Virus record (IMG/VR): IMGVR_UViG_3300028840_006907
Coordinates: 288,001 to 352,000 of that record
Length of the DNA stretch: 64,000 nucleotides
Strand: one strand, 5' to 3'
From: a virus
The notes beneath the pieces are model-generated. The model searched no databases. It worked only from the letters and a program-made list of their open reading frames with translations, and had not been told where the DNA came from. Shown piece by piece: positions 10,281 through 64,000 of the stretch (within the stretch, counting starts at the first letter, position 1; each line of letters begins with the position of its first letter). Position numbers and translations under genes: made by a program.

Positions 10281-10342
10281 AAATTAGATATAAGAAGTCT
10301 CATTGAGACTATTCAATAAAATAATAAATAGGAATAAAAAAG

Positions 10343-11146: not shown

Positions 11147-11176
11147 ATTTACATATAGATATTGAAAGGAGATTGT

Positions 11177-12151: not shown

Positions 12152-12154
12152 CTT

Positions 12155-17141: not shown

Positions 17142-17155
17142 TAGGAGGACGAAGT

Positions 17156-19052: not shown

Positions 19053-19055
19053 AAT

Positions 19056-21158: not shown

Positions 21159-21161
21159 TAA

Positions 21162-21737
21162 ATGAATTTATTTGAATCTGCGTACTATACTGAAGAGGAT
21201 CTGAGAAAAGGCGGTTTTAAAAGTGTCGGTAAAAATGTTCAGATTGATAAAAGTTGCACGATAATAGGCTTAGATAAAATCACTCTAGGAGATAATGTTC
21301 GAATCGATGGTTACTGTTGTATTATTGCCACAAAAGAGGAAGTGATTTTCGGTTCTTATATTCATATAGGTTCGTTTTGTCATCTCTGTGGAACTGCAGG
21401 TCTTATAATGAAAGATTTTTCAGGTTTGTCACAAGGAGTTCGAATTTACTCCTCTTCTGATGATTATTCAGGAAAGTTTTTAACTAATCCAACTGTTCCC
21501 GATAAATACACAGGTATAATAAGAGAACCAGTTATTATAGGTAAACATGTTATAATCGGGGCTAATACTGTTATTCTTCCAGGAGTTGTTATAGGTGATG
21601 GGTCAGCTATTGGTGCCATGTCCCTTGTAACAAAAGACGTAGATAAAAATAGTGTCTATGCAGGTTGTCCAGCGAAATTTATAAAAACACGTTCAAAAAG
21701 AATATTTGATTTAGAGAAGAGGTTATTAAATGAATAA
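21162..21737 (+). CDS. hexapeptide-repeat (LbH) sugar acetyltransferase
   Basis: Repeating [LIV]G-x-x-x-x hexapeptides: 'IGANTVILPGVVIGDGSAIGAMSLV'. NeuD/PglD-like size. Confidence 0.8.
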   Translation: MNLFESAYYTEEDLRKGGFKSVGKNVQIDKSCTIIGLDKITLGDNVRIDGYCCIIATKEEVIFGSYIHIGSFCHLCGTAGLIMKDFSGLSQGVRIYSSSDDYSGKFLTNPTVPDKYTGIIREPVIIGKHVIIGANTVILPGVVIGDGSAIGAMSLVTKDVDKNSVYAGCPAKFIKTRSKRIFDLEKRLLNE

Positions 21738-22443
21738 ATCAATTTTCATATGTTCAGGAGGTCGATGTGGTACACATTGGGTTCGGCCTATTCTTGCTCA
21801 GCTTTTAGATTTACAAACTGGGTTTGATTGGAAAGGATATAATCCAAATAAAATTCCCTTTAAAACAGAACCTGGAGCTATTTGGAAAATAAAGATGGTA
21901 GAAAAGAGAGAGCCAGGAGGAAGGATTTATTCAGGGCATATGCCAATTACAGAACTTCTACCTATTATCAGTTTAGTAAATATAATAATTCTTATAAGAG
22001 ATCCTAGAGATATGTGTGTTTCGGCTGCATATTATACTCCAGAAAGAAGAGTATTAACTCAAGAAGAATTTGAATCTAAATTTAATAATTTATTAATACA
22101 AGGAAGCCCGAATCCTGATTTTCATGAATCTTATATAGAAAGTAAGAATAAAATACCTCATTTTTTATTAAAATATGAAGATATGATTCATGATGATTAT
22201 GGCTCAATAGTTAAATTTTTAAATAATTCAGGTTATAAATTTGAAGAAGAAAAATTAAAATATGTACTTGATAAAAACTCATTCAAGAATTTATCAGGTG
22301 GACGAGAAGCCGGTGAGGAGGATAATACCGCTTTTTATAGAAAAGGTATTGTGGGTGATTGGGTAAATTATCTCTCTAATGGTTTACTTGAACAATATAC
22401 CGATAGGCATAAAACTTTGTTGGAAGAATGGGGGTATATGTAA
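21730..22443 (+). CDS. sulfotransferase family protein
   Basis: 'IFICSGGRCGTHW' is 5'-PSB-like. 'IRDPRDMCVSAAYY' matches the 3'-PB motif well (R-x-P-x-D-x-x-V-S-x-Y). Confidence 0.6.
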   Translation: MNKSIFICSGGRCGTHWVRPILAQLLDLQTGFDWKGYNPNKIPFKTEPGAIWKIKMVEKREPGGRIYSGHMPITELLPIISLVNIIILIRDPRDMCVSAAYYTPERRVLTQEEFESKFNNLLIQGSPNPDFHESYIESKNKIPHFLLKYEDMIHDDYGSIVKFLNNSGYKFEEEKLKYVLDKNSFKNLSGGREAGEEDNTAFYRKGIVGDWVNYLSNGLLEQYTDRHKTLLEEWGYM

Positions 22444-22444
22444 T

Positions 22445-23116
22445 ATGGAAGATTATTTTGAACAAATGGTAACAGTTTTTAAAAAGTACTTTAAAGAGTA
22501 TTATCGTAATGTATTCACAAATCAATCAGTGGAAACCTGTACAGGTATTTATAATCTTTGTAAAAAAGAAAATCCAGATCAAGTAGTGGAAATGGGAACC
22601 AATCATGGGGCTTCTACTCTTTCTATAGTAAAAGCACTGACTGATTTAGGGAAAGATTTGTCTATTATTACTTCAATTGATTTAGACCACGAGAAATGGA
22701 AGGCAACATTTAATATACAAAAAGAATTGATTAAAAAGTATGATTTAAATTTAGGAAAAGTAAAATTAATAACTCAAGATTTTAATTCAGTAGATCCTGT
22801 AGAAATAATTGACCCTGAAAAGAAAGTATTTATTTTTTATGATATGCATGATCATCGAGGCCCATGGTCACAGAGACTACTTGATTTATGGGTACCTTTA
22901 GTTAAGAATGGTGTCTTCTCTATTCATGATGTAACTCCTGTAAGTGAATCCTTTGAAATAGTTCAGGATAAAATTTCCCCTCGAACAAAGATACAGTATA
23001 AGAGTGGGCAGTATTTTGCAGGTTTCAATGAATGTTTTCGAATAATAAAATGGGCAAATACAAATAACATAAATATAGAGATATTTCCAGGAGGAGTATA
23101 TTTCAGAAATGGCTAA
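22445..23116 (+). CDS. putative SAM-dependent methyltransferase (CmcI/TylF-like)
   Basis: Start at 22445 immediately follows the upstream stop. 'VVEMGTNHGASTLSIV' is motif I-like. Confidence 0.45.
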   Translation: MEDYFEQMVTVFKKYFKEYYRNVFTNQSVETCTGIYNLCKKENPDQVVEMGTNHGASTLSIVKALTDLGKDLSIITSIDLDHEKWKATFNIQKELIKKYDLNLGKVKLITQDFNSVDPVEIIDPEKKVFIFYDMHDHRGPWSQRLLDLWVPLVKNGVFSIHDVTPVSESFEIVQDKISPRTKIQYKSGQYFAGFNECFRIIKWANTNNINIEIFPGGVYFRNG

Positions 23117-23795
23117 CATTTTTATTGGAAAAAATATGTCAAATATAAAAAATATTCCTGGTTTAAATAAAATAACAAAGATACATGATGTGGCTGATTA
23201 TGTGAGATTAGCTGATTTTGTCTATAAAACAATTTCCCATTCTATGGATAGTGGGATTGATTTAGATTATTCTGTTAATCAATTGTATTGGCAATTTGTG
23301 AATAAAAAGAGATTTGGATGGTGCTATATGCATGCTCTGTATTATCATCTTATAGTACAAGAATATGGTCGTGAATCTTTTGTTTATGATTATGGCTTAC
23401 CAGCGCCACAATTAACTCATAGTGTTGTTGTAGTAACTTTACGTGATGATAAGTATTTAATTGATCCTTATTTTAATCGTTATTATGTAACAGAAAAAGG
23501 GAATCCGTATACATTTCCTGACTTATTGGCTATGATAAAAACTGATCCAACAAAAATTTATAGTAAATATGGACCTGGTTTGAAAGAAGTTAAACAGGGA
23601 GATAAATATATAGAAACTTCTCCTGAACAATTTGAAAAAGGAGTATTGGAATCGTGGCGAGTAAATCAGAATTATGATAAAATAATGATGGAAAAATTTA
23701 ATAGCACAAATGCATTATTATTAATGCATTGTAAAGTACAAAAAGCTAAAGTATGTAAAAAAATAGATGGGACAAAGTATTTTGACTTTTTCTAA
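23109..23795 (+). CDS. hypothetical protein with transglutaminase/NAT-like Cys-His-Asp arrangement
   Basis: 'GWCYMHA' (GxCxxxA), 'THSVVVVTL' and 'IDPYF' in the order of a papain-like triad. Confidence 0.35.
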   Translation: MANIFIGKNMSNIKNIPGLNKITKIHDVADYVRLADFVYKTISHSMDSGIDLDYSVNQLYWQFVNKKRFGWCYMHALYYHLIVQEYGRESFVYDYGLPAPQLTHSVVVVTLRDDKYLIDPYFNRYYVTEKGNPYTFPDLLAMIKTDPTKIYSKYGPGLKEVKQGDKYIETSPEQFEKGVLESWRVNQNYDKIMMEKFNSTNALLLMHCKVQKAKVCKKIDGTKYFDFF

Positions 23796-47966: not shown

Positions 47967-48536
47967 ATGTTTTATAGAAGAGAATTAATTGATCTAAATT
48001 CTAGTGAAGGAAAGACTCTAATGGAATGTATGTTGCCAGGTTGTCAGGGCAATGAGTTTAAAGAGACTGTTGCCAATAGATTAAGAAAAGTCTCACGGAT
48101 ACTTAAGGCTCAATTCTATGACATCGATCCTGAAATGCTCCTGAGACTATATCAGGATTATCTCGAAGAAATGCCTGATAATTGGAATTATATCCTTCCA
48201 CCTGAACTTAATGAAATTATAAAAAGTGGTCAGGCTAGTAATTATTTTCTACTTGATATTCGGAAACCTGAAGATTTTCAGGAAGTTCGTATACCAGGTA
48301 CAGTAAATATCTATTGGCAAGATGTATTGAAAAAAGAAAATTTAAATAAATTGCCTATTGATAAAGAAATAATAATTATTTGTTATCTTGGTCATACAAG
48401 TTCTCAGATCTTGGTTATTTTGTCCACATTAGGTTACCGTTGTAGATCTCTGAAGTTCGGGATGGGTAAAAGTCCCGATGTAAAAGTACTTATAAAGGGT
48501 TGGTTGGATTATAATTTCCCAGTGATAAAACAATAG
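47967..48536 (+). CDS. rhodanese-domain protein
   Basis: 'YFLLDIRKPEDFQEVRIPGTVNI' is the rhodanese N-motif. 'IIICYLGHTSSQ' is the active-site Cys loop (CxxGxx). Confidence 0.55.
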   Translation: MFYRRELIDLNSSEGKTLMECMLPGCQGNEFKETVANRLRKVSRILKAQFYDIDPEMLLRLYQDYLEEMPDNWNYILPPELNEIIKSGQASNYFLLDIRKPEDFQEVRIPGTVNIYWQDVLKKENLNKLPIDKEIIIICYLGHTSSQILVILSTLGYRCRSLKFGMGKSPDVKVLIKGWLDYNFPVIKQ

Positions 48537-48543
48537 ATTTATT

Positions 48544-49032
48544 ATGAATAAGCAATCGTTTAATAAAGAAAATGTTACAGAACTTCTTAGTCAATTGAAA
48601 AAAGTAGTTAATCGGGATTTGGGTGATGAATATAATCAGGAATTAATAGAATTAAGTAGGAAAATAGACCGAAATTTTAAAAAGAGAAAATTAGTAATGC
48701 GGGTGGCTTCTAATTTTTTAAAAACTATTCTTGCTACAATGGCATATAGTACTCATGGTAAATGGTCACCTTCAAAAGAGATTTATAAAACTGAAAAAGA
48801 ACGTGGTAATAAAGTTGATAAACTTCTTTTACAAGAAAATTATGACGCTATTTGGGTATGCCCTAAACCAGAAGATTGTGTAAGATATAATAGAAGTAGT
48901 GATGAAGAAGATGATCCTGTAACACAGGAAGAAATTGATGAACTCGTCAAAGTCAATTTGAGTGGAGCTACACACGTAAAATCTATGGATGATGGTGATG
49001 GCGGGGAATTATGGATTAGAAAGGCAAAGTAG
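48544..49032 (+). CDS. hypothetical protein
   Basis: ORF. No motif. Confidence 0.45.
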   Translation: MNKQSFNKENVTELLSQLKKVVNRDLGDEYNQELIELSRKIDRNFKKRKLVMRVASNFLKTILATMAYSTHGKWSPSKEIYKTEKERGNKVDKLLLQENYDAIWVCPKPEDCVRYNRSSDEEDDPVTQEEIDELVKVNLSGATHVKSMDDGDGGELWIRKAK

Positions 49033-49610
49033 TGATTTGTTCTGATGAATATCAATTCATATTTTATGCAGTCCCTAAAACCGGTTCTCGATCCATGCAA
49101 AATTTTCTTCAACGTTACGGTCGTCGCTCTGTAACTGGCTGGTCACCTAATCATAATAATTATGAAGAAGTAAAAAGTGATGTAGGTATAGAAAAAAGTA
49201 ATAAATATTTTAAGTTTGCTTTTTTCAGAAATCCATGGGCTATGCTTGTATCCATGTATTTCTATAATATGCATATATGGGGACTAAATGCCAAAAAAGA
49301 TTCTGTTGTAAATTGGCTTAATACATATAAAGGCGGGGATCCTTATATTCCTTATATTTTTGATAATGAAGGAAATGCCATTTTGGATTTTATGGGTAAG
49401 TTAGAAAATTCCAGAGAAGATTTAAAAACTGTCTGTAAAATGTTAAAGATCCCGATCTCAGGAGAATTGTCCCATATAGGAAAACAACATGTAAAAGGAA
49501 GATTGGATTATAGAGCGTATTATGAAAGTCCAGTACTAGTGGAAAAAATAAGAAAGATATTTTCAAAAAGTCTTAGTGTGTTAAATTATGACTTTAATGA
49601 AGGGGTTTAA
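49032..49610 (+). CDS. sulfotransferase family protein
   Basis: 5'-PSB 'FYAVPKTGSRSMQNFL'. 3'-PB 'FFRNPWAMLVSMYFY'. Confidence 0.6.
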   Translation: MICSDEYQFIFYAVPKTGSRSMQNFLQRYGRRSVTGWSPNHNNYEEVKSDVGIEKSNKYFKFAFFRNPWAMLVSMYFYNMHIWGLNAKKDSVVNWLNTYKGGDPYIPYIFDNEGNAILDFMGKLENSREDLKTVCKMLKIPISGELSHIGKQHVKGRLDYRAYYESPVLVEKIRKIFSKSLSVLNYDFNEGV

Positions 49611-49949: not shown

Positions 49950-50816
49950 ATGGACAAAAAATATGAAGACCGAATGCTTGTCGTTTTTATCTTAGTGGGT
50001 CTAGTTGGTGGGTCACTGTTCTATTTCCTTAAAGATGGTCAGCCTCTCAGCTCAATTTTCATGACTTTCGCTCTATCAAGTATCCTCTATCGATTCCTGG
50101 GTGGAATTGGCCAAGGCACAAAATTCAGTGTCGGAGCATTTCGGTTAGGTGGTAGTGCAGCCTTCATGATCGGCTGTATCTTTTTTATCAACGAGTACAT
50201 TTTCCCAAAACCAGAAATCAACACCATTGTTTTAAGTACTCCCCAGGATCGATGGGTTCCTGTTAAATACCCTACAGGTGAGTATGTGAATGTTAAGGTA
50301 TTAACTCCTTCTGGAGATACTATTATTCATGGTATAAGTAGTGTAGAAATGGATGCTTTAAAAAAAAGGGAATACTGCATCACAAAAGAAGGGGAGAATT
50401 TTTATATCTGTTCTAATGCTGATTCAACGGTAATAGGCCATCTTAAGTTTGAAGATGTTTTTAAAGCTATTGAAAATGATATCCATATCACAGTCCAAGA
50501 TTTTCGGGTTTTTAAATTATACCCTAATCCTATAAATGACCCAAAAGATCAAGAAAAGAAATATAAAACTACTGATTCACTTGATGCTGTAAGTCAGACT
50601 TTTCCCATAGTAATCGAAGTCGATAAAACTAATATGAATATAAAGACAAAGGATGACAGTTTATTAACATCAGATGTACCTCGTAGTGAAAAATTCTATT
50701 TAGTTGATATTGAAAATGAGTATTTTATAGTTACAATATTACATGCTAATTTAGAAACATCAGAAAGTAAATGGTATTCTGAGTTTCTTGTTGGAAAAGT
50801 ATCTATTAATCGATAG
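49950..50816 (+). CDS. membrane protein
   Basis: RBS 'aaaaggagg'. Three N-terminal hydrophobic helices. Confidence 0.5.
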   Translation: MDKKYEDRMLVVFILVGLVGGSLFYFLKDGQPLSSIFMTFALSSILYRFLGGIGQGTKFSVGAFRLGGSAAFMIGCIFFINEYIFPKPEINTIVLSTPQDRWVPVKYPTGEYVNVKVLTPSGDTIIHGISSVEMDALKKREYCITKEGENFYICSNADSTVIGHLKFEDVFKAIENDIHITVQDFRVFKLYPNPINDPKDQEKKYKTTDSLDAVSQTFPIVIEVDKTNMNIKTKDDSLLTSDVPRSEKFYLVDIENEYFIVTILHANLETSESKWYSEFLVGKVSINR

Positions 50817-51252
50817 AGGTAATATGAGCAATATGAAAATTGCAATAGCTTCTTATATGCGTTATACAGTTGTTTTAGCCAACTTGAAAGAGCATTTCAA
50901 AAGAGAACTCGATCTAGCTGGCCTATTTGATAAAGACTCCGATTATAATGGAATGATAGGTAACGCTGTTATGGACCTGTGTAAAGTCTTCTCTGATCAG
51001 GGCCATAGCGGGTTCTCCGCGAACTGGGTTCTGAAATTGTTCGATACTCTTGGTCACTATAAAACGTTGACTCCTATTACAGATAATCCGAAAGAGTGGA
51101 TGAAGGTTACAGATGGCCTCGGTAGAGATGAACCGGTCTGGCAGAGTAATCGAAATCCTTCCCTTTTTTCTAATAATGGTGGAAAGAGTTATTATGATGT
51201 AGACGATAAGAAGCGTAAGAAGATCCGCTCTAAAAAGTTTAAAAAGAAATAA
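50788..51252 (+). CDS. hypothetical protein with basic tail
   Basis: ORF. Probable start at the internal Met (MSNMKIAIAS, about 50824). Ends 'KRKKIRSKKFKKK'. Confidence 0.45.
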   Translation: MLEKYLLIDRGNMSNMKIAIASYMRYTVVLANLKEHFKRELDLAGLFDKDSDYNGMIGNAVMDLCKVFSDQGHSGFSANWVLKLFDTLGHYKTLTPITDNPKEWMKVTDGLGRDEPVWQSNRNPSLFSNNGGKSYYDVDDKKRKKIRSKKFKKK

Positions 51253-51414
51253 TTTTTCTGAATAAATCAGGTTTTTTTCTTATTCTTTCGATAATTTCTC
51301 TTCTCTTTTTTCTCATAATTTATTATAATTATATATAGTATCTATAGCTCTTTGAAATTGGTAGAAATTTACTGAATCCGTAAGCCCTTGATCTTATGAT
51401 ATTTATGTTTTAGT
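51253..51414 (+). promoter_or_regulatory. CRISPR leader (AT-rich) with candidate promoter
   Basis: 162-bp AT-rich non-coding stretch directly 5' of the first repeat. 'ttgatc'-17 nt-'tagtat' at 51389..51416. Confidence 0.4.
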
Positions 51415-52317
51415 ATATTCCCCGCGTATGCGGGGCTGGGCCGATAAATCTTAAAATGGGTAAGATAAAAACCTGAATATTCCCCGCCCATGCGGGGCTG
51501 ATGCGTAATATAAATAATTTTTGATCAATTATAGGACATATTCCCCGCCCCTGCGGGGATTCCCCGAAAATATTGATGTTTTTTTGTATATATCAAAAAT
51601 ATTCCCCGCCCCTGCGGGGTTGATGCGAATACCGAACAAGTGCAGGGCCTGCAGATTATATATTCCCCGCGTATGCGGGGCTGGCGCGTAGGAGGTAAAA
51701 ATGAAATCGAAACATATTCCCCGCGTATGCGGGGCTGGTTCTAGAATTGAATGAAGCGCTGAATTTTCCCCGCCCATGCGGGGCTGAACCGACCGGGAAA
51801 TCATATCTATCCATAAATCTTGCATATTCCCCGCGTATGCGGGGCTGAACCGATACTAGATTGGGACATGTGTTTACCCAGAACATATTCCCCGCCCATG
51901 CGGGGCTGAACCGATTTCAAAAAACACGACCAGATAAAGATGAATATTCCCCGCGTATGCGGGGCTGTGTCAGGGTGAGAGGCTCGTGACGAATAATTTT
52001 TCATATTCCCCGACTCTTCGGGGTTGCCCCTCAGGAAGCTATTGAATTGCAAAAAACTGTATTCCCCGTCTATGCGGGGCTGTCTCTCCACATGCAAATG
52101 TAAGTAGTAAATACTGAATATTCCCCGGCATTCCGGGGCTGATCCCGTCTGGTAAAAACATAAAATGGTTCATCATAAGTATTCCCCGCCCATGCGAGGT
52201 TGGGCCATCCAGTACTGCTACTGCTAGGACCGTATTCCCCGCCCATGCGGGGCTGATCCTACGACTGGGACAGAAGTATTCATTGGTTTCACCCCGGCCT
52301 TTCCGGGGTCTAAAATA
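51415..52317 (+). CRISPR. CRISPR array, 16 repeats, type I-E-like 29-nt repeat ATATTCCCCGCGTATGCGGGGCTGAACCG, no cas genes in the window
   Basis: Repeat starts at 51415, 51477, 51538, 51599, 51660, 51714, 51763, 51824, 51885, 51944, 52003, 52059, 52118, 52179, 52232 and 52289. Periodicity is mostly 61 bp (29+32). Repeats share TTCCCCGCG...GCGGGG and the AACCG tail with the E. coli I-E repeat. Distal repeats are progressively degenerate. Spacers are unique and AT-rich. Confidence 0.8.
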
Positions 52318-52355
52318 AGGATCTGAGATTTTTTTCTTAGATCCTTATATTTTTA
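52317..52355 (+). terminator. hairpin terminator at distal end of array
   Basis: Stem 'aaggatctgag'/'cttagatcctt' with a T-rich loop, followed by 'tatattttt'. Confidence 0.45.
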
Positions 52356-52409
52356 ATAATGTATTTATATTATTCCTTTAAATAATATCAAAATAAAAAA
52401 GGAAAAAGT

Positions 52410-53315
52410 ATGGCAATTGCGTTTATGAGAGGAAGCACCACTAATCAGAATGATTTGACCATAACGGTACGTGATACATCCAATAATTTGATCGACCCGT
52501 ATTCGTTGGAGTATGCTGTCTTCGATTACACTAGTGGCACTGAGGTCCTCATCGGATCCCCTGTTAATACTCCGCTCAAGTTGTCAACAGGAGAATATTG
52601 GGCGGAGGTTGTAATAGCAGCCGATGCCAATATAGGTCTCTGGCGCATCCGTTGGACAATTCAAGAAACAGCAGTCAGTCCTGTTTATCAATCGGTTCAG
52701 GAATTTCAAGTAGTAGGTTCCAGTGTTGTGACGAGTGTAACCGGAGATGCAAATTTTGATGCATTGGTCCATTCTTTACGAGTGATACTCCGAGACAACA
52801 ATCCGGACCGCAACTACAGATTTCGTCCCCCAGCTTCCGAGAAATTTATCCAAGGTCAGACCCAAGTCTTTGGATTCATTTGGGAAGATGAAGAGCTTGT
52901 AGAGTATATATACATGGCTATTGACGACTTCAATTCACGCCCCCCGACTACAGGTATAGATGTGGCCAATCTTTGGGGAACTGAGAGACGGTGGAGAACT
53001 ACAATTATTTTAAGAGCAGCAGCTTTTGCATGTTTCGCTATAACAATGAATTGGATCGCTGACGAATTTTCTTATTCAATTTCTGGAGTATCTCTTGACA
53101 TTGAGAAATCTTCGAAGTATCAATCTATGAAAGAGAATTATATCAATGAATATGACAAGCTTGTCGAGGCCAATAAGAGATCCATAAAAATTATAAAAGG
53201 TCTTAGGCAATATCGGTACGGGGTGGGCATCACGAGCGCCCTGGGACCCATGAACAGACCTGGAGTTCAAAGTAGAAGAAACCTTATAAGTCCAAGTTAT
53301 GGCCCTTATTTCTAA
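52410..53315 (+). CDS. hypothetical protein (compositionally GC-richer than neighbours)
   Basis: RBS 'aaaggaaa'. 301 aa. No Cas-like motif. Confidence 0.5.
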   Translation: MAIAFMRGSTTNQNDLTITVRDTSNNLIDPYSLEYAVFDYTSGTEVLIGSPVNTPLKLSTGEYWAEVVIAADANIGLWRIRWTIQETAVSPVYQSVQEFQVVGSSVVTSVTGDANFDALVHSLRVILRDNNPDRNYRFRPPASEKFIQGQTQVFGFIWEDEELVEYIYMAIDDFNSRPPTTGIDVANLWGTERRWRTTIILRAAAFACFAITMNWIADEFSYSISGVSLDIEKSSKYQSMKENYINEYDKLVEANKRSIKIIKGLRQYRYGVGITSALGPMNRPGVQSRRNLISPSYGPYF

Positions 53316-53408: not shown

Positions 53409-55916
53409 TTATATTTTATTATTTTTTCTAAGGAGAGCTATCTGACGTTTAATCCATCGAGGAGTTTCTTCAAGAGTTTCAGCCATTTGATTTCTTGTCA
53501 TCTTTCCACGATTATCTATTATGAATTGGAGCTTTTCTTCAGTCTTTCTATCTTTGGTACAACCAATAGGGTTTTTTGTAGATAATGTACCTTTTTTTTG
53601 TAAGAATTTTATTTGAGATTTAACCCATCGCTCTGTTTCATTGAGAGCTTTAGATAATTCTTTTTTAGTTTTATTTTTATAATTAGTGATTATATACTGC
53701 GTTTTTTCAGGGGTTCTTCTACATTTTGTTGAGAATTTAGAAATCTCTTTTAAATAGGTAAATTTCTCAGTGGGTTGTTTAATATTTATATCTTCAATAC
53801 ATTTTGAATTATATATTTCTTTTTCTCTTTTAGGATAAGGTTTAGTAACATAATTTTTTAATTTGTTAATTTTTTTCTTATCTCTTTTATTTTCACCTAT
53901 TAATAAGACATATTTATGTTTTCTTTCAGTAATAAATTTTTGAGCTTCAGATAATATATTTTTATTCCAATTATTCCATTGAACTTTAATTCCTTCTGGT
54001 ATGGTACTCATATTTTTAAAACCATTTTCTTTAAACCATTCCTTTTGAGAAATAATCCCTTGATTTTTACACCATTTTTTAAATGCTGATGTACGTTTTA
54101 GAGATTGAGCTGAAAAAGTCCTATTATTTTTAATGGAAGGATGTTTATATAAGTATGAACTTCCAAAGTTATTTCCTAGATAATCAAATCCACAAGCTTG
54201 GTAAATAGTCCCTATTTCAAGAGCTTTAGGATCAGCATAACCTATGAAAGCTCTTTTAGAAGTGTTATTAGCCATCCAATTACAAGCAAACCTTATAAGA
54301 CGGCTACCCAGGTTTTTCGGGGTCCATGAGGCAGTGGCACCTCTTTGAATTAAAGCTTCATATTTGGGAGTATCTTTACCTAGAATTTTGGAATATGCTG
54401 TGGGTTCATTTATAAATAATACTCCTGCGAGAATATTATTGTATCTGGCTGTGAAGCACCATTTTGGTATTACTCCAATTGTTCCTAACCATTCATATTT
54501 TTTTATAAATTGGACCATTTCATTATTAAATTTTTCTTCAGATAATGTAAAAGAAGTAGCTTTTAAAGAAGAGTGATTGAAATCGATATTTTTTTTATCT
54601 TCATCAATCCATTGAAGTTTCTTTTTATATTGGTGGCATATAAAAGTGGTCTTGTTTTTACTGTTAATTTTATTTTTTATTAAATCAATGATAATACCTT
54701 TTCGGATAGCTTCTTTTACATCATCAGACCAAAATCTAATCAAATTGGGTATATTTTTATTTTGGATTTCATCATTCTTAATATTTTCTTTTATTTTTAA
54801 TGCCCTTGGAGACGTATCATTTTCTCTTATTTCTTTACCATGCCAATAATTACCATCATATTGTACCCATAAGTTATAGCGAGGCATATAGAAATCAATT
54901 ACATGTTTAATAATTGGGTGCATAACTTGATGTTCTACAAAAGGATCAAATACAATAAGATAATTAAAAAAGTTATTTTCTTCATCTGAGGATGAGAAGG
55001 AATTATTTAGTTTAACTGTTTTATATGTTTTTTCTTTTATTTCAACATTCTGTTGGGGATTTTCAACGCCATATCTTTCAATATTAGTTTCAGTGATTTT
55101 TTTCTTAATCTCTGGAGATTGGAATACATTGTCAACCCCGTATCTTGATTGTACTGTTACTTTAACTTTTCTTTTTACTTCTTTAGATTGAGAGGGGTAT
55201 TCTACTCCTCGTTTTTCAATATTAGATTGACGGGATTTTTCTTTCATTGAGTTTAGTTGAGTAGAATATTCTACGCCATAACGTTTTTTAATAGTTTCGT
55301 TATTATGTTTAACTATATCTTCATTTATTTTATCTCGATTCCTTCTTAATCCTAGTTTAATAGCTCTTTCTCGGATGGCTTTCCAGGTCCTGTTTTCAAA
55401 GTAGAGCATAATAAATTCCATAGAATTCTTTTCATATACTTCTTTTAAAAGATCATCTTCTTTGGGTGACCAGAAGTCTTCCCTAGCAGGAGCGCTTTTA
55501 CCACCATCAATCATTTCTTGTTTAATTATTTCAGGATTTCTTTGAAGGTTTAATTTTTGAGCATTACTTCGGATGCTTTGCCATGATCGATTCTTGAATT
55601 TAGAAAGGATAAATTCTTTTGAATTATTTTCATATATATTTTTAAGAATATTTATCTCTTCGGTTGTCCAGGAATCTTTTCTTGGTCCTCTTTTTTTACG
55701 GTCTTCATTTATAAGGTCAGGATTACGGTGAAGATTTAGCTTACGTGCTTTTCTACAGATGGTTGTCCAAGATTTATTTAATTTGGAGATAATAAATTCT
55801 TTTGAATTATTTTTATATATTTCTTTTAATAAATTTTCTTCTTCTATTTTCCAACGCATATGAGTACCTCTTTTTAGTATATTACTTATTATAACAGGTA
55901 TTAGAGTTATTGTCAA
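53409..55916 (-). CDS. multidomain HTH-repeat protein with Vsr/PD-(D/E)xK-like endonuclease motif
   Basis: Likely start at Met 55859 (MRWKIEEE). Three about 45-aa 'W[ST]xEExxxLKxxYxxNSxEFI...RxWxxIRxxAxKLxLxRN' repeats. Four 'RYGVE(N/Y)PxQ' repeats. 'YDGNYWHGK' Vsr-like motif. C-terminal about 400 aa uncharacterised, with two more HTH-like repeats. Confidence 0.6.
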   Translation of the reverse strand: MTITLIPVIISNILKRGTHMRWKIEEENLLKEIYKNNSKEFIISKLNKSWTTICRKARKLNLHRNPDLINEDRKKRGPRKDSWTTEEINILKNIYENNSKEFILSKFKNRSWQSIRSNAQKLNLQRNPEIIKQEMIDGGKSAPAREDFWSPKEDDLLKEVYEKNSMEFIMLYFENRTWKAIRERAIKLGLRRNRDKINEDIVKHNNETIKKRYGVEYSTQLNSMKEKSRQSNIEKRGVEYPSQSKEVKRKVKVTVQSRYGVDNVFQSPEIKKKITETNIERYGVENPQQNVEIKEKTYKTVKLNNSFSSSDEENNFFNYLIVFDPFVEHQVMHPIIKHVIDFYMPRYNLWVQYDGNYWHGKEIRENDTSPRALKIKENIKNDEIQNKNIPNLIRFWSDDVKEAIRKGIIIDLIKNKINSKNKTTFICHQYKKKLQWIDEDKKNIDFNHSSLKATSFTLSEEKFNNEMVQFIKKYEWLGTIGVIPKWCFTARYNNILAGVLFINEPTAYSKILGKDTPKYEALIQRGATASWTPKNLGSRLIRFACNWMANNTSKRAFIGYADPKALEIGTIYQACGFDYLGNNFGSSYLYKHPSIKNNRTFSAQSLKRTSAFKKWCKNQGIISQKEWFKENGFKNMSTIPEGIKVQWNNWNKNILSEAQKFITERKHKYVLLIGENKRDKKKINKLKNYVTKPYPKREKEIYNSKCIEDINIKQPTEKFTYLKEISKFSTKCRRTPEKTQYIITNYKNKTKKELSKALNETERWVKSQIKFLQKKGTLSTKNPIGCTKDRKTEEKLQFIIDNRGKMTRNQMAETLEETPRWIKRQIALLRKNNKI

Positions 55917-57073: not shown

Positions 57074-57913
57074 ATGCACAAAATAATAGTCTTATTATTA
57101 GTTTTGTTAGTGAATGTTTTTTCTGTAACGCCTGAATATTTGTGGGTAGGTTCCTACACTATTGAGCATTACAATAATGGTGTTTATTTGGCTTATAGTC
57201 ATAAGCAAGCTTCTGCTTTTACTTCTCTAATGAGTTGGCTTATTAATTGGAAAAATCTTGATATTGATTATAAGTGGAATCATAACTATAAGGATGCTGC
57301 TGTTAATGAGACAGTATTCGAAGGACAGGATTTTAATATTAATGAATTTCTCATTTTTGTTAGTCATGGTTATCGGGGAGGAATGGTCATTAATAAATAT
57401 AATACTTCGACTACTTATGCAATGGATATCTCTAATCAATATCCTAATACCAGATCATGGGATTTTGGTAATTCTTATACCAAATGGATTATCATGGGTT
57501 CTTGTCATACAATCCTGGATGAGCATGTGACTGTGTGGGGGACCACTTTTTATTTTTACGATCAGATTTTTGATGGTGTGCATAGTATTATGGGCTATAA
57601 ATCTGATGGTAGAAACGTTTATGATGGTGGTCCGATAGGAAGATTCCCATTAGAGTGGGTTCATAATCGACGTTCTATTTGGAATGCATGGCGTGTGTCG
57701 GTCCGGGAAGAAGTATATGAAGGTTGCAACCAAGATGTGACACCTTCCATGGTAGGTGTTTGGGGAACTGTGAATGGGCAAGATTGGGATGCAGATACTG
57801 AATTGTTTTATGCTGTGTATGATGCCTTAACACCTCATAATGAAACTTTGGGGGCTTGGATAGGTTATGGTATGATGTATCGTCATGTTGAATATGGCGA
57901 TCCGGAATATTAA
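57074..57913 (+). CDS. secreted protein with caspase-fold-like His/Cys dyad
   Basis: Signal peptide 'MHKIIVLLLVLLVNVFS'. 'IFVSHGYRGG' and, 42 aa later, 'IIMGSCHT'. Confidence 0.4.
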   Translation: MHKIIVLLLVLLVNVFSVTPEYLWVGSYTIEHYNNGVYLAYSHKQASAFTSLMSWLINWKNLDIDYKWNHNYKDAAVNETVFEGQDFNINEFLIFVSHGYRGGMVINKYNTSTTYAMDISNQYPNTRSWDFGNSYTKWIIMGSCHTILDEHVTVWGTTFYFYDQIFDGVHSIMGYKSDGRNVYDGGPIGRFPLEWVHNRRSIWNAWRVSVREEVYEGCNQDVTPSMVGVWGTVNGQDWDADTELFYAVYDALTPHNETLGAWIGYGMMYRHVEYGDPEY

Positions 57914-57930
57914 AAAAGGGAGATAAAGAG

Positions 57931-58848
57931 ATGAAAAAAGTATTTATTATAATAGTATTGTTTTGTGCTTATGGATTTTCAGAAATATCTGTGTCAGATA
58001 TTGTTAAATCATTTGTGGATAATCCAAAGACTTTCAGATCTAGATTGTTGAAATATGAAGTTATTCCAGACCATGTTGATTTACCAATAGAATTTGTCGA
58101 TGATGAAGATGAAAGTTTATGGAAAACTAAGAAAAAGGTTAATTATATAATAGATTATTCAAAGATGTCGAAATGTGCTGATAAATTTAGAGATCTTTTT
58201 GCATATGAAGGATTGACTGAATATCAGTATATGGATCAGTCAAACCTTTTGGTATTTAATCATCCTAATGGTGGCCGTGAAGTATCCGCACAGATTGTCA
58301 GGGATTTGATTAATACTAGAACAGAGGCAGAATTAAAAAATATAGGATTGACTTTAGGTGAAAAGCTCTTTGCCATTTTTAAGAATAAAATAGAATTTCA
58401 ATGTACGGAAATAGAGTATACAAGGGGTCATACGAATTTAAACCAAATAAGTAAATACTCTATTCGATATAGGCGTATTTTTAATGATGGTATTGTCTTA
58501 CAGAATATTTCCTATATAATGTTAACTCTGGAAGGACTTGGTGATTTGATTGAAGTCGAGATTAAATGGCCTAAATTTAAAAAATGTGAAAATATAAAGA
58601 ATGGCATTTTAATTAAGGACGCTTTAATATTAGCTAAACAAGAGTATAATGAAATCGCTTCTCGAAAAGTTGATGAATTCTTAAATATTGAAGCTATCGA
58701 TAGACTTTCTATAACTGGATCTTGTTTTGGATGGACTCATGAGATCATTGATGGTGTTAATTTATTAAAACCTAGTTATGGGTTTGTGGGAATAGCTGAA
58801 ACAAAGAATGGTAAAAAAGAACATCATTATATAAATATCGATAAATGA
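57931..58848 (+). CDS. secreted hypothetical protein
   Basis: Signal peptide 'MKKVFIIIVLFCAYGFS'. RBS 'aagggag'. Confidence 0.5.
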   Translation: MKKVFIIIVLFCAYGFSEISVSDIVKSFVDNPKTFRSRLLKYEVIPDHVDLPIEFVDDEDESLWKTKKKVNYIIDYSKMSKCADKFRDLFAYEGLTEYQYMDQSNLLVFNHPNGGREVSAQIVRDLINTRTEAELKNIGLTLGEKLFAIFKNKIEFQCTEIEYTRGHTNLNQISKYSIRYRRIFNDGIVLQNISYIMLTLEGLGDLIEVEIKWPKFKKCENIKNGILIKDALILAKQEYNEIASRKVDEFLNIEAIDRLSITGSCFGWTHEIIDGVNLLKPSYGFVGIAETKNGKKEHHYINIDK

Positions 58849-59695: not shown

Positions 59696-59941
59696 ATGGC
59701 TTTTGAAGTTGAATATTTTGAATTGTCACCGAGCGATGCAACAAATGAGTATGTCTCATTAGGGGGTGTTCCAGTGGTTGCTGATAATGTTGCAATAGAT
59801 CTTGTGGGAGGTACAGCCCAAGCATTAACGAATGATTTTGCCGTTGATGGAACAAGAATTGTATGGGATAGTACATCCTATAATTTAAATGGACTGCTTG
59901 CTACTGGTGACAAAATGAGAGCTATCTACGATAGATCCTAA
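59696..59941 (+). CDS. hypothetical small protein upstream of tail-fibre gene
   Basis: RBS 'aaggag'. 81 aa. Confidence 0.4.
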   Translation: MAFEVEYFELSPSDATNEYVSLGGVPVVADNVAIDLVGGTAQALTNDFAVDGTRIVWDSTSYNLNGLLATGDKMRAIYDRS

Positions 59942-59978
59942 CACCTATAACTAATCGATTTTAAAGGAGTTAGAGCAA

Positions 59979-62900
59979 ATGGCTCAAGTAGAAAGAAAAT
60001 GGATCCAGGACCAAGCAATTTCCAATGAAAAAGTAGATCCCACTGATATTTATACCATTACAGGTTTAAGAGTTGATGAAACCAATGCCATTGGGAGAGT
60101 AGGAATAGGTTTATCTAGCCCTTTGGATGCTCTTCATATTCAACGAACTGATTCTTCTTCTGGAATGATGCTGGATCTTAGTGATGGTACAAATGGTAAA
60201 CTTTATAAGATATATTCAGGAGCTAATGGTTTACTGAATTTTACTGATGCTACAGATGGGGGCATATTCACCTATGGTGAATCAGGTTCGATAGGTCGAG
60301 TTGGTATCAATACCGCATCTATCCAAGATCACCTTCATGTAAGTTCCCCTTTAACAGATGCTGCGTTAAGACTTGATTTAGATGATGGACTCAATGGTCG
60401 AGCTTATCGTCTTGTCTCAGATACAGATGGAGCTTTTAGGATAATTGATGTTGATGCGGGTAATGTAAATAGACTTCAGATTGCTAATACAGGAACTTTA
60501 ACTGTCTCAGGTGATGCAACTTTTGATAGTAATTTTCAAATTAATGGTACTGTTACAGTTATTAATACTGAAATTGTCATTGCAGATCAATTAGAAATAA
60601 ATCAAACTGACAATCAGGCAGCATTGATAGTAAGTCAAGATACAGGTGGTGCTACAGCCACTGTAATGAGAATTGAAAATGCTGGCACAGGCCATGCTTT
60701 AACCGTAGATTCTGGTAATGTAGGTATTGGTACTTTAACTCCGGCTGCTCCTCTTCATGTTCAAGGTGATATAATTACTGCCAATGGGTATAATATCGGA
60801 GACACCACTCATAGAATTGGTACTCTTTGGATGGCTTCTACTGTAGATTATTTGACTGACCTTAATTTTAGTTCAGGTGGAACAAATGTTACTTTTGCAA
60901 CCGGTGGAAATGTCGGGATAGGTTCTGGTACTCCTACCCAGGCCCTGGATGTGGTTGGAACTATAGAAAATACAGGTGATATCATAACAACTGGTTCTTA
61001 TCCTTCCGGTTTAATAAGAGGAGCTTATTTAACGATAACTACTGGAAATTCGACTTTCCAAGGAAGAGTGGGAATTGGTGTTACAAGTCCGTCTTATCCT
61101 CTTCATGTTGGTGGAGACATTTATTCCAATACAGGTAATATTGTAGCCACTGCTGGAACTGTGACAGGTGGATCTGGTTTAATAGCTACTACAGGTGGTG
61201 TTATAGCCTCTGCTGGAAATATAACAGCGACCTTGGGTGATCTCATCGCTTCTGCGGGTTCTGTAACTGCTAATACAAATGTAACTGCTACGAATGGAAA
61301 TATAGTTGCTTCTAATGGAAATATTTCTGCTACGAATGGTACAGTAACAGGAGGCACCGGTTTAATAGCTACCACAGGGGGTGTGACCGCTACGAATGGA
61401 AATATAGTTGCTTCTAATGGAAATATTTCTGCTACGAATGGTACAGTAACAGGAGGCACCGGTTTAATAGCTACCACAGGGGGTGTGACCGCTTTAGCTG
61501 GTAATATCTCTGCTTCGGCTGGTTCTGTAACTGCTAATACTAATATAACAGCCACGAATGGTAATATTGTTGCTTCTAATGGAAATATTTCTGCTACAAA
61601 TGGTACGGTAACAGGAGGCACCGGTTTAATAGCGACTACAGGTGGTGTAACCGCTACGGCTGGAAATATCACTGCTTCAAATGGTAGTTTTGTCGCTCCA
61701 AATGGAATTGTAAGTGTAGGTTTTGGCGTTATAGCAGCAGGGGGTGATATATTTGCCCAAACGGGTAAAGTAGGAATTTCAACCAGTTCTATTGCAGGAG
61801 GTTATGTATTACATGTTCAAGGAAACGCTTATTGTTCAGGTCAAGTAGATACAAATACTTTGGATGTAGGTAGTGGCAGTTTTACTGTAAGTGCAATTGG
61901 TGCAACAAATATCGGACCAGGCTGGTTAACTTTCGGTCAACATATGTCTGGTGGAGGACAGATTGGATCTGCTTCTACCGTAAATATTGTTTCAACCAGT
62001 GGTGCAACTATGTCAGGAGGTTCAGGCGCTGTCTCAATTACTACTAATAACAGTGGTACGCCAAGTGCGATTAATGTGACCTCTGGAAATAACACCGGAT
62101 CAGGAGTTGGTGGAGCACTCAATCTGAATGCAGGTGATTCGGGAGGAGCTGGTACAGGTGGTGCAGTAACTATTACTGGAGGAACGGCTTCAGGTGGTGG
62201 ATCTACAGGAGGAGACATTTTGCTGCTTCCTGGAAGTGCTGTCTCAAATGGGCGCGTTGAGGTAGGCACAGGTGCCTCTTCGAAAAATTTATGGGTTTCA
62301 GGTAGTGTAACTATAGAAGGAGCTAATTCTGCTTTTGCTCTTTCGATTAATAATACGAATTATGTAGGAGCTTATTGTGCAATAGCAGGAGCATCAACGG
62401 TAGCTGGCTGGTTTGAAAATAGTGGTTCAGATTCAACATCTATGTTTGTGCAACAATTAAATACTGGTAAAGGGCTTTTCGCTACTGGATTAGGATTAAA
62501 TTCTTTTGCAGGATTTTTCCAAAGTACGGGCTATACAACTCTTAGGTCAGAAGTGAGTGGTACTGGAGGTGGTGATTATGCTGTACATGCAATATGTACA
62601 AATGCTGGATCGAGTGCCACTTCAGCAGCAGTTTTTGCTCAAAATTGGGGAGGTGGAAAAGCTATTCAGGCAACCGCAGGAACTGGAACTACTATTCAAG
62701 GGTCAAACACTAATGGTACTGCTATTTATGGGTCTCAAGCAGGAACCTCTGGTAGAGCAGGACGTTTTAGGTGTAATGCTGGATCTTATGCATACAATGC
62801 TGTTGAGGTAGAAGTGACTTCAGGTACAGGAGCTTCAAAAGGGATCTTAGTTAATTATACCGGTTCTGGTAATGCTATAGAAGTAAACGGTGGTAGTGGC

Positions 62901-63665
62901 TATGGTATTGAAGCATACCAAAGTGCAGGAACAGTTTATCATGGGACTAATTCAGGAACTACAGGTAGAGCTGCTTTATTCGAAACTTCTAATACCAGTT
63001 TTAATGGTACTATAGTTGAAATAAGTAGTAATACAACATCACTGAATAATAATTGTTTAGTTTGCAATCATTCAGGTAGTGGTACAGGTCTTACTGTTAA
63101 CTCCAATGCAGCGGGTGCTAGTTTTGGTATTAACAGCTTTATGCCGGGTGTCTCTGGAACTGGAAGAGCTATTAATGGCTACTGTGTTTCAGCATCAGGA
63201 TTTGCCGGTTATTTTACTGGGAATGTACATATTGCGGGTACTCTTTCTAAAACTGCGGGTGGTTTTAAAATTGATCATCCAATTGAACCTGAGACAAAGA
63301 ATTTAGTTCATAGTTTTGTTGAAAGCCCTGAGATGAGGAATGTCTATTATGGACGGGCTGTGACTCATGATGGGACAGCATCTATAGGTCTTCCGGATTG
63401 GTGGGTTACATTAAATGGGTCTAATAAGGAAGAGTATAATTATAGTTTAACTACTATTGGTAAATACAGCAGATTATTTATTAGTAAAGAAATAGAGAAC
63501 AATCAATTTGAAGTCTCTTCATTGGATGGAGACTGTACTTTTTCCTGGACTATCTCAGCCATTCGCCATGATACTTATGCTGAGAGCAACAGAATACAAG
63601 TAGAAAAGAACAAAACACAAGAAGAAATAGATGATTATAAAAAAGAGCATGGCATTTCTGTCTAA
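59979..63665 (+). CDS. tail fibre-like protein with internal tandem repeats
   Basis: 1228 aa. Gly/Thr/Ser/Asn-rich with beta-helix-like repeats. The N-terminal 100 aa is paralogous to the next gene. RBS 'aaaggag'. Confidence 0.6.
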   Translation: MAQVERKWIQDQAISNEKVDPTDIYTITGLRVDETNAIGRVGIGLSSPLDALHIQRTDSSSGMMLDLSDGTNGKLYKIYSGANGLLNFTDATDGGIFTYGESGSIGRVGINTASIQDHLHVSSPLTDAALRLDLDDGLNGRAYRLVSDTDGAFRIIDVDAGNVNRLQIANTGTLTVSGDATFDSNFQINGTVTVINTEIVIADQLEINQTDNQAALIVSQDTGGATATVMRIENAGTGHALTVDSGNVGIGTLTPAAPLHVQGDIITANGYNIGDTTHRIGTLWMASTVDYLTDLNFSSGGTNVTFATGGNVGIGSGTPTQALDVVGTIENTGDIITTGSYPSGLIRGAYLTITTGNSTFQGRVGIGVTSPSYPLHVGGDIYSNTGNIVATAGTVTGGSGLIATTGGVIASAGNITATLGDLIASAGSVTANTNVTATNGNIVASNGNISATNGTVTGGTGLIATTGGVTATNGNIVASNGNISATNGTVTGGTGLIATTGGVTALAGNISASAGSVTANTNITATNGNIVASNGNISATNGTVTGGTGLIATTGGVTATAGNITASNGSFVAPNGIVSVGFGVIAAGGDIFAQTGKVGISTSSIAGGYVLHVQGNAYCSGQVDTNTLDVGSGSFTVSAIGATNIGPGWLTFGQHMSGGGQIGSASTVNIVSTSGATMSGGSGAVSITTNNSGTPSAINVTSGNNTGSGVGGALNLNAGDSGGAGTGGAVTITGGTASGGGSTGGDILLLPGSAVSNGRVEVGTGASSKNLWVSGSVTIEGANSAFALSINNTNYVGAYCAIAGASTVAGWFENSGSDSTSMFVQQLNTGKGLFATGLGLNSFAGFFQSTGYTTLRSEVSGTGGGDYAVHAICTNAGSSATSAAVFAQNWGGGKAIQATAGTGTTIQGSNTNGTAIYGSQAGTSGRAGRFRCNAGSYAYNAVEVEVTSGTGASKGILVNYTGSGNAIEVNGGSGYGIEAYQSAGTVYHGTNSGTTGRAALFETSNTSFNGTIVEISSNTTSLNNNCLVCNHSGSGTGLTVNSNAAGASFGINSFMPGVSGTGRAINGYCVSASGFAGYFTGNVHIAGTLSKTAGGFKIDHPIEPETKNLVHSFVESPEMRNVYYGRAVTHDGTASIGLPDWWVTLNGSNKEEYNYSLTTIGKYSRLFISKEIENNQFEVSSLDGDCTFSWTISAIRHDTYAESNRIQVEKNKTQEEIDDYKKEHGISV
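61130..61680 (+). repeat. in-frame tandem repeats (about 102 bp / 34 aa units) inside tail-fibre gene
   Basis: 'acgaatggaaatatagttgcttctaatggaaatatttctgctacgaatggtacagtaacaggaggcaccggtttaatagctaccacagggggtgtgaccgct' recurs at 61291, 61393 and, diverged, at 61545. Protein repeat 'TATNGNIVASNGNISATNGTVTGGTGLIATTGGV'. Confidence 0.7.
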
Positions 63666-63695
63666 ATTTCTTTTGTAAAAAGGAGTTAAATACTC

Positions 63696-64000
63696 ATGTC
63701 ACAAGTGTTGAGAAAATGGATAGCTGATCAAGCCGTTAATAATGATAAAATAGATCCTACCGATACCTATACAATTACAGGATTGAGAGTCGATGAGACG
63801 AATGCCGTAGGAAGAATAGCAATGGGATTAAGCAGTCCATTAGATGCTATTCATATTAGGAGGACTGATACTTCTGCTGGTATAATAATGGATCTTGATG
63901 ATGGAGGTTCAGGACGATCTTATCAAATAACTTCAGATCAAAGTGGCTTTTTAAATGTAAGAGATAGAGATCTCGATGTTGATCGATTGACTTTATATTC
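63696..64000 (+). CDS. second tail fibre-like protein (3' partial), N-terminal paralog of 59979..63665
   Basis: 'MSQVLRKWIADQAVNNDKIDPTDTYTITGLRVDETNAVGRIAMGLSSPLDAIHI' aligns with the first about 60 aa of the upstream fibre (MAQVERKWIQDQAISNEKVDPTDIYTITGLRVDETNAIGRVGIGLSSPLDALHI). RBS 'aaaggag'. Confidence 0.55.
   Translation, partial: MSQVLRKWIADQAVNNDKIDPTDTYTITGLRVDETNAVGRIAMGLSSPLDAIHIRRTDTSAGIIMDLDDGGSGRSYQITSDQSGFLNVRDRDLDVDRLTLY

Follow-up and report, generated by a model that had tools for sequence, protein, structure and literature searches.

Probable tandem paralogous fibre genes with a common proximal part and different distal ends in an uncultivated megaphage

Why would a phage carry, side by side, two very large genes that begin alike and end differently, and what do such genes encode? 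The question is raised by the end of a 64,000-nucleotide (nt) stretch of viral DNA (positions 288,001 to 352,000 of IMG/VR record IMGVR_UViG_3300028840_006907; this whole stretch is hereafter termed the window), which contains fibre gene A (59979..63665; 1228 amino acids, aa) and, with 30 nt between the stop of A and the start that follows, the 5′ end of fibre gene B (63696..64000, 101 of 1158 codons). These and the other features of the fibre region lie on the plus strand, as does the connector-like gene described below. The open reading frames (ORFs) of the fibre region are as described in an earlier reading made from the letters of the window without database searches (the sequence-only reading), including the truncation of gene B by the window end. 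The host range of a phage depends mainly on its fibre genes; to our knowledge those of 300-500-kb megaphages are almost unstudied, and we know of no cultured member of this clade. We consider it probable, at roughly three chances in four, that A and B specify tandem paralogous virion fibres, acting as receptor-binding proteins or adhesins, of an uncultivated megaphage of about 470 kb.

Within the window the N-termini of the two proteins are 64% identical and 86% similar over 90 aa, ungapped (E=4e-41), and the motif quoted in the sequence-only reading is indeed found, which upholds its proposal of tandem paralogues with a common N-terminus. This similarity and the repeat of gene A described below go far beyond what chance would produce. 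Its view that the proteins diverge after 60-100 aa, however, does not hold, as the divergence was apparent only because the window end cuts gene B. The complete gene is present at 13616-17092 of one related locus, L001, and at 13718-17194 of another, L005, a 388,651-bp Joint Genome Institute (JGI) contig (3300017963) that carries gene A together with the whole of gene B and shows one mismatch with the window in 14,021 overlapping nt. Full-length B aligns with A across 452 aa at 68% identity, with no alignment past aa ~450; by these comparisons the homology spans ~430-450 aa.

Conservation across this common region is uneven. Protein identity is ~75% for aa 1-45, 34-47% for aa 60-120, the most variable portion of the common region, and, in 30-aa windows, 83-100% for aa 135-330. 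In this last segment nucleotide identity is 85.3% over 565 nt and third-position identity is mostly 0.47-0.77, and such high amino-acid but low third-position identity argues for an old duplication kept by purifying selection. The exception is a patch at aa ~240-270 (nt ~60696-60788), in which A and B are 96-98% identical in nucleotide sequence and third positions reach 0.90-0.93, a pattern consistent with a small recent conversion tract.

As judged from its sequence, gene A is built of six parts: an N-terminal peptide, duplicated modules, a proximal shaft, a heptad region, a distal region and a C-terminal domain. The peptide (aa 1-38; 59979..60092; MAQVERKWIQDQAISNEKVDPTDIYTITGLRVDETNAI) is conserved and is a putative virion-attachment anchor. 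It is followed by two tandem modules of ~62 aa (aa 39-100 and 106-165; 60093..60473), each of which begins GR(V/I)GI..SP.D.(L/I)H and which contain the variable aa 60-120; phmmer identifies them as mutual duplicates in A and in every homologue that has the same N-terminus (query 34-95 against target 101-162, E 1e-7 to 1e-11). The proximal shaft (aa 135-330; 60381..60968), the best conserved segment between A and B, carries GNVGIGT..P...LHV motifs. Beyond it lie a shaft region of heptad periodicity (7 aa, 21 nt; aa 385-595; 61131..61763), recognized from period-21 arrays in Tandem Repeats Finder and from its heptad layout, a distal region rich in Gly, Ser, Thr, Ala and Asn (aa ~640-1075; 61896..63203), and the C-terminal domain (aa 1076-1228; 63204..63665), in which a conserved motif precedes a beta-sandwich. 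The distal region, presumed to form a beta-helical distal shaft, is unrelated to B and gives only compositionally biased alignments to other fibre-like proteins. In A, which was modelled as a monomer, heptad periodicity and a composition rich in Gly, Thr, Ser and Asn (G 16%, T 13%, S 10%, A 10%, N 8%) would be in keeping with an elongated trimeric fibre. Gene B has a tandem repeat of its own (L005 15874-16444; 261 nt, 87 aa, 2.2 copies, 75% matches), and this is unrelated to the 34-aa unit of gene A described below.

The common N-terminus is shared well beyond this pair. Sixteen database proteins (P0001-P0016), as well as B, begin with it, and in all of them the aa 1-38 peptide sits at the exact N-terminus; it is still recognizable in the fibre of the relative L013, the shaft of which differs. 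Among the 16 homologues there are at least three kinds of C-terminus: six share the C-terminal domain of A, P0006, whose N-terminal part is 79% identical to A, ends in Peptidase_S74, and the others end differently. About 30 further proteins share the C-terminal domain only (phmmer, E 1e-15 to 1e-70). N- and C-terminal modules thus assort independently, which points to module exchange and agrees with the swapping of receptor-binding modules that the sequence-only reading had proposed. A scan of IMG/VR with gene A itself found no relative.

The heptad region also holds the repeat that had been described as at least three 102-bp units, two of them near-identical, and this description is accurate. 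The 34-aa unit, TATNGNIVASNGNISATNGTVTGGTGLIATTGGV, is present as three exact protein copies: U1 (aa 436-469; 61284..61385), U2 (aa 470-503; 61386..61487) and, after a 20-aa spacer, U3 (aa 524-557; 61548..61649). U1 and U2 are identical at 101 of 102 nt. U3 matches either of them at 92 of 102 nt, with all ten differences at third codon positions, and the perfect preservation of the peptide despite these ten synonymous changes shows that selection acts on it. For gene A, Tandem Repeats Finder gives a period of 102 with 2.1 copies, 98% matches and a score of 414, while phmmer with the unit as query returns five matches, the three exact copies and two degenerate ones (aa 378-408 and 558-589); a 7-residue (21-nt) period underlies the unit over aa ~385-595. 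More than one copy is found only in gene A and in its variant P0001, which has two, and P0005 and P0037 have one copy each, so that the repeat appears to be lineage-specific.

The number of units differs between near-identical assemblies. P0001 (1194 aa), the closest database protein, is identical to A at all aligned residues, minus one 34-aa unit, and is encoded on two ENA contigs of 469,021 and 469,260 bp; these two assemblies of ~469 kb suggest a genome of about 470 kb. L001, the locus that represents this 469-kb form, differs from the window by three substitutions in 14 kb (99.98% identity) and by an in-register 102-bp deletion that removes one of U1 and U2, and the three-unit protein is encoded on three or four other contigs, L005 among them. 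The variable repeat number that had been anticipated is therefore seen as three versus two units between assemblies that are 99.98% identical; the part of the proposal that is less secure is that the variation exists in the phage population, as opposed to reflecting collapse during assembly, a point considered below.

What, then, lies at the end of the gene A fibre? By sequence its C-terminal domain belongs to an unnamed family of fibre-end domains, which in an alignment of 23 members displays the near-invariant motif G.LSK..G.F.IDHP..P..K.L.HS.VESPEM.N.Y.G (IDHP...VESPEM for short) followed by a more variable part. The invariant residues of the alignment are I, P, L, E, Y, G, G, R and D. In gene A the stretch KIDHPIEPETKNLVHSFVESPEM spans aa 1097-1119, and the beta-sandwich that follows the motif comprises ~80 residues. 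The AlphaFold model built on this alignment has a predicted local distance difference test (pLDDT) score of 91-98 per 10-residue block over model residues 81-160, which cover most of the sandwich; the motif scores 48-57 in the monomer. Fold comparison places the sandwich nearest to the ends of the cyanophage Pam1 tailspike and of pyocin fibres, Foldseek against the PDB concurs (7eea, E=4e-3), and of the 24 matches at E<=1e-3 in BFVD every named one is a phage protein, the names including minor tail, tail fibre-like and collagen-repeat proteins. The modelled end of gene A is thus similar to known fibre and spike folds, in keeping with the fibre assignment of the sequence-only reading. The intramolecular chaperone that this reading had placed near KIDHPIEPETKNLVHSFVESPEM is unsupported as Peptidase_S74 (PF13884), for which there is no Pfam match in A or in the 23 aligned C-terminal domains; the absence is meaningful because the same search detects S74 in the relative P0006 (E=5.9e-16), and identity of the A C-terminus with the S74 chaperone was rejected.

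The C-terminal domain family is large. A profile search among cluster representatives gave 23,391 matches at E<=1e-3, 17,575 at E<=1e-10 and 10,448 at E<=1e-30, and in nearly all of the best 150 of the 23,391 matches the domain is at or near the C-terminal end. In cultured phages, tblastn links aa ~1043-1223 of gene A to gp218 of Flavobacterium phage vB_FspM_immuto, to PSSM2_295 of Prochlorococcus phage P-SSM2 and to cyanophage S-TIM5 (28-36% identity, E 2e-7 to 2e-4). No Pfam-A model in the copy searched matches the domain, and a profile search of the PDB with the C-terminal alignment found nothing significant, leaving the motif without a counterpart among solved structures.

The genomic surroundings are those of a phage. 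A connector-like structural gene (52410..53315; 301 aa) forms the upstream edge of the variable slot in which the fibre genes lie. It matches, by tblastn, the ‘head-tail connector protein' of the 309-kb jumbo phage Tunturi_5 (E=5e-29, 89% coverage), a protein of uncultured phage LR745208.1 (485 kb; 6e-38) and phage G gp165 (2e-9), and has relatives on 112 IMG/VR viral contigs, many of them of 300-452 kb. From these matches the source element is taken to be a megaphage, and the non-phage setting that would have spoken against the sequence-only reading is not what is found. A literature search on phage G gp165 and Tunturi_5 produced nothing relevant.

In close relatives (L007/8, L009/L098, L013 and L090) the connector gene is followed by variable inserts, a gene homologous to one of 81 aa that precedes gene A in the window, one fibre gene with the common N-terminus, a ~100-aa protein, a 92-aa Cys-rich protein and large beta-helix/PKD proteins. 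The window phage has two fibre genes in this cassette, whereas L007/8, L009, L013 and L090 each have one. In L098 a 455-aa homologue of the Tunturi_5 gp322 ‘minor tail protein' (E=3e-31) then follows the cassette. In distant megaphages the connector and 81-aa genes are adjacent and are succeeded by a different protein of 700-800 aa and then by the gp322-like gene, which in L012 and L016 is followed by terminator homologues and in L016 also by a sheath homologue; in L031 and L068 it comes directly after the connector. The slot between the connector and gp322-like genes measures 0 kb in L031 and L068 and as much as about 17 kb in L098. By gene order, therefore, the slot of A and B is hypervariable and is flanked on either side by a conserved structural gene.

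The 81-aa gene (59696..59941) ends 37 nt before gene A. The start at 59696 that the sequence-only reading gave to its fibre region belongs to this separate gene, not to a fibre gene. In L007, L009, L013 and L090 a homologue of the 81-aa gene immediately precedes the N-anchor fibre gene, and a 1428-aa beta-helix protein of L007 (20618-23221) contains the ~80-aa domain of the 81-aa protein in three copies, from which it follows that the domain is mobile and not merely stand-alone. It has no sequence match in Pfam, PHROG, NCBIfam or the PDB, and a profile search with the alignment of its homologues gave nothing significant. Between the fibre genes, the sequence AAGGAG (63680..63685), read as Shine-Dalgarno-like, stands 10 nt before the start codon of gene B (ATG 63696). 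Promoter and terminator scans of the fibre block gave counts at or under shuffle expectation, and operon boundaries cannot be called from signals that are no better than those of shuffles.

Taken together, these data suggest how the pair might operate. The slot gene would have been duplicated long ago, with both copies retaining the common proximal part (aa 1-38, the ~62-aa modules and aa 135-330). This part most likely docks both fibres, presumably as homotrimers, at the same virion site or partner, and a candidate for the partner is the co-conserved 81-aa protein encoded just upstream. Because A and B are unrelated beyond aa ~430, one particle or population could present two different distal ends, probably recognizing two surface structures, and the range of surfaces that can be bound would thereby be widened or switched. 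Unequal recombination or slippage between adjacent 102-bp copies would add or remove a whole unit, altering the length of the shaft and leaving the frame and the repeat register intact. The C-terminal module would cap the gene A fibre in the manner of the domains in which tailspikes and pyocin fibres end.

Such an arrangement has parallels. Phages with several receptor-binding proteins that have a common N-terminal attachment module include CBA120 with its tailspikes TSP1-4, K1-5 with its dual tailspikes, and the phages with branched receptor-binding protein systems of Klebsiella. Phages with several receptor-binding proteins are also the topic of PMC13579863. Like these systems, A and B are adjacent paralogues with a conserved N-terminus and unrelated distal parts, and modules are exchanged among their relatives. 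Unlike them, A and B have an unusually long common part (~430 aa), in which conservation is higher in a shaft segment than at the extreme N-terminus; no known anchor domain matches this N-terminus, and the carrier is a megaphage of ~470 kb.

A second parallel is provided by Bdellovibrio. A single weak sequence match, through GNVGIGT..P...LHV, connects gene A aa 235-378 with Bd2133 (PDB 8ond; E=0.0046), a trimeric beta-helix fibre (PMC10769870). Bd2133 and Bd1334, which are mosaic adhesive trimer (MAT) fibres, have N-termini that are 75% identical and exchanged C-terminal tips, and MAT fibres divide into those with S74 and those with non-S74 endings (PMC10769870). The A/B family resembles them in its common N-termini, its swapped tips and its S74 and non-S74 endings, but resides in a megaphage and not on a predatory bacterium. 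The C-terminal sandwich of A resembles in fold the receptor-binding domain of the Pam1 tailspike (7eea), the R2 pyocin fibre (6cu2/6cl6) and the end of AP22 gp53 (4mtm); identity, however, is 6-19%, only the sandwich of ~75-120 residues aligns and the overall root-mean-square deviation is large. With the endosialidase-type fibres that end in Peptidase_S74 (PF13884), gene A has in common the terminal position of the domain on a (presumed) trimeric fibre, but its end folds as a beta-sandwich and has no S74 match. In immuto gp218 and P-SSM2 PSSM2_295 the domain is likewise at the extreme C-terminus and both genes lie among structural or tail-fibre genes; the rest of these proteins, and of that of S-TIM5, is unrelated to A, and their tail-fibre or tail-fibre-like role is one of annotation. 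Membership of A and B in the S74, MAT or trimeric-autotransporter families is not supported.

Several observations weigh against the view that A and B are receptor-binding virion fibres, some of them by favouring another account of part of the data. We infer presence in the virion and binding to a host receptor from sequence and gene context. Scans of A, B, the 81-aa gene and the flanking genes with Pfam, PHROG and NCBIfam gave no family match. The AlphaFold model of the N-terminal 175 aa has a mean pLDDT of 60, with aa 1-38 below 50 in the monomer, and since this model is poor the anchor role is drawn from the pattern of conservation. The distal ~700 aa of B have almost no homologues, and the distal 730 aa no match among cultured phages, so that the function of B is deduced from its position. 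Position also bears on where the fibres would be attached. It could be argued that they are neck or collar fibres, or other head-proximal or tail-decorating fibres, comparable to the whiskers of T4 or the neck-anchored fibres of cyanophage A-1(L), and not baseplate tail fibres. The slot comes directly after the connector-like and 81-aa genes and before minor tail, terminator and sheath homologues, no baseplate gene was recognized near it, and neck-anchored fibres have been described in a myophage (PMC10966104). It should be emphasized, however, that gene order is a weak guide to position in the virion, that the nearest relatives of the C-terminal domain are annotated as tail-fibre or tailspike proteins and that baseplate genes of this clade may be unrecognizable. 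As the slot lies between connector and minor-tail genes, gene order does not decide between baseplate and neck, and attachment at the neck is regarded as a possibility that is not favoured. Far less credible is a role outside the virion, in which A and B would act as adhesins on a cell surface, of MAT or trimeric-autotransporter type and either bacterial or carried as phage cargo and displayed by the host. The sole PDB sequence match is the Bdellovibrio surface fibre noted above, some homologues are labelled ‘trimeric autotransporter adhesin' by JGI and some distant homologues bear YadA-head repeats (PF05658). Against this, the surroundings are the structural region of a megaphage, many viral contigs show the fibre cassette in synteny with structural genes, A and B have neither a YadA anchor nor any Pfam domain, and their N-termini show by eye no hydrophobic leader, which two upstream ORFs do have (no signal-peptide predictor was run). 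Trimeric-autotransporter identity was rejected, as neither A nor B has the anchor domain.

Other accounts concern the repeat and the C-terminal module of the presumed fibres. The difference between three and two units could be an artefact in which near-identical 102-bp units collapsed during short-read de Bruijn assembly: the two-unit form derives from contigs with k141_... names, such as the 469-kb k141_1708087 of ERZ27256798, in the style of MEGAHIT short-read assemblies, U1 and U2 differ at one nt in 102, so that few reads tell them apart, the remaining 14 kb differs at only three positions between assemblies, and both assemblies could stem from the same or closely related read sets. A k of 141 nevertheless exceeds the 102-bp unit, which makes the U1-U2 junction resolvable in principle; moreover, the two-unit protein is found on both of the large ENA contigs and the three-unit protein on three or four others, and the deletion is of exactly one unit and in register, as unequal recombination predicts. 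At the level of assemblies the difference is an observation; it is probably a true polymorphism, with collapse the less likely explanation although one to be taken seriously, and the three-unit form cannot easily be an artefact. As for the C-terminal module, the conservation of IDHP...VESPEM across thousands of clusters is atypical of a receptor-binding surface, and the module may be mainly an assembly device, a trimerization nucleus or chaperone-like cap comparable to Peptidase_S74 or the fibritin foldon. It is near-invariant over ~17,500 clusters and at or near the C-terminal end in nearly all of the best 150 matches, it is joined to very different stalks, including collagen-repeat proteins, it takes in the N-anchor family the terminal place that Peptidase_S74 has in P0006, and its motif is of low confidence in the monomer, as expected of an inter-subunit element. 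The module, however, resembles S74 neither in sequence nor in fold, its sandwich half is variable and similar to domains at the ends of receptor-binding proteins, and neither a cleavage motif nor a catalytic Ser-Lys dyad was recognized in it. A motif so strongly conserved would suit a part in structure or assembly, and the variable sandwich one in ligand contact; that the module serves mainly in assembly is entertained only tentatively. It could be an undescribed, S74-independent fibre-assembly cap present in more than 17,000 protein clusters. Giant eukaryotic viruses build glycosylated fibrils, and the A and B fibres might similarly be glycosylated by the sugar-making machinery of the phage itself, with the 34-aa repeats as glycan-bearing modules. 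The unit contains NIS and NGT sequons and gene A is rich in Thr, Ser and Asn; the weak enrichment of N-x-S/T sequons in A (31 against 22.7 +/- 4.1 in shuffled sequences), with no such enrichment in B, was not used as evidence, and we consider glycosylation of this kind unlikely.

The reading of A and B as tandem virion fibres leaves the current view of how phages diversify their receptor-binding proteins unchanged, modular fibre paralogues with a common N-terminal anchor and differing ends being an ordinary and well-known way to vary host recognition. The locus exemplifies a fibre slot that is hypervariable although both genes that flank it are conserved structural ones, an old duplication in which a common base of ~430 aa has been retained, and a repeat array that differs in its number of units from one near-identical genome to another. 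Two by-products, the C-terminal domain family and a sugar-biosynthesis cluster described below, may merit more attention than the fibre pair. Domains of the former cap fibre-like proteins of phages and of numerous metagenomic sequences that are unassigned; being very large and having neither a Pfam model nor a solved structure, this family deserves a formal definition and structure determination.

The sugar-biosynthesis cluster occupies much of the first part of the window (1-39760, both strands), where a run of ~35 kb consists of genes for the synthesis of activated sugars and nonulosonic acid. It encodes a UDP-glucose dehydrogenase, several epimerases or dehydratases, a nucleotidyl transferase, a formyl transferase, a PIG-L deacetylase, a DegT aminotransferase, the nonulosonic acid synthase NeuB, a CMP-sugar transferase and many methyltransferases, in addition to at least six glycosyltransferases, two of which (684 and 994 aa) are fused to methyltransferases. 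This run is unusually large for a phage.

Downstream of gene B, as seen in L005, the ~100-aa and 92-aa Cys-rich proteins (17273-17856) are conserved with the fibre cassette in all close relatives and are possible assembly factors. They are followed (18031-23687) by a 741-aa protein with two Laminin_G_3 lectin-like domains, which is inserted in the window phage and absent at that position in L009, and by a 1305-aa Gly-rich repeat protein, probably orthologous to a 1370-aa protein of L009 (36% identity over 86% of the query).

The variable inserts between connector and fibre cassette include, on the minus strand (53409-55916), an 835-aa ORF with three N-terminal Myb/SANT-like repeats, DUF7487, C-terminal helix-turn-helix motifs and a Mom-family domain (PF25680, E=1.2e-10); counterparts of 964-1001 aa occur in L007 and L013, whereas L009 has none at this place. 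Two adjacent ORFs of 279 and 305 aa (57074-58848) have hydrophobic, signal-peptide-like N-termini, MHKIIVLLLVLLVNVFS and MKKVFIIIVLFCAYGFS, and no family match; they are absent at the corresponding place in L007 and L009 and hence look like accessory cargo. Upstream of the connector (47967-49610 and 50788-51252) lie genes for a 189-aa rhodanese-domain protein, a 192-aa weakly sulfotransferase-like protein and a PF25185 ‘Tad3' protein, a trio likewise conserved in L009. The ~1.1-kb stretch that separates the Tad3-like gene from the connector (51253-52409; G+C 0.37-0.385, compared with about 33% for the window) is devoid of a convincing forward ORF and contains no Rfam family or tRNA gene, nor were any found elsewhere in the 64-kb window.

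Two further observations come from the relatives. In L013 (IMGVR_UViG_3300038499_000016, 10001-12380) the connector-like gene is interrupted: similarity to the window protein is confined to its N-terminal 221 aa and its C-terminal ~50 aa, with ~1.4 kb of unrelated coding DNA in between. This insert ends ...ILVHNT right before the resumed YSISGVSLD, a junction suggestive of an intein or a homing endonuclease inserted into a structural gene. Finally, in L012, L016 and other IMG/VR loci a conserved protein of ~335 aa, encoded ~7 kb downstream of the connector and inside the structural region of these distant megaphages, starts with MAKGLDIGTCFLVGA, a sequence that looks like the phosphate-binding motif of actin/Hsp70-type ATPases.

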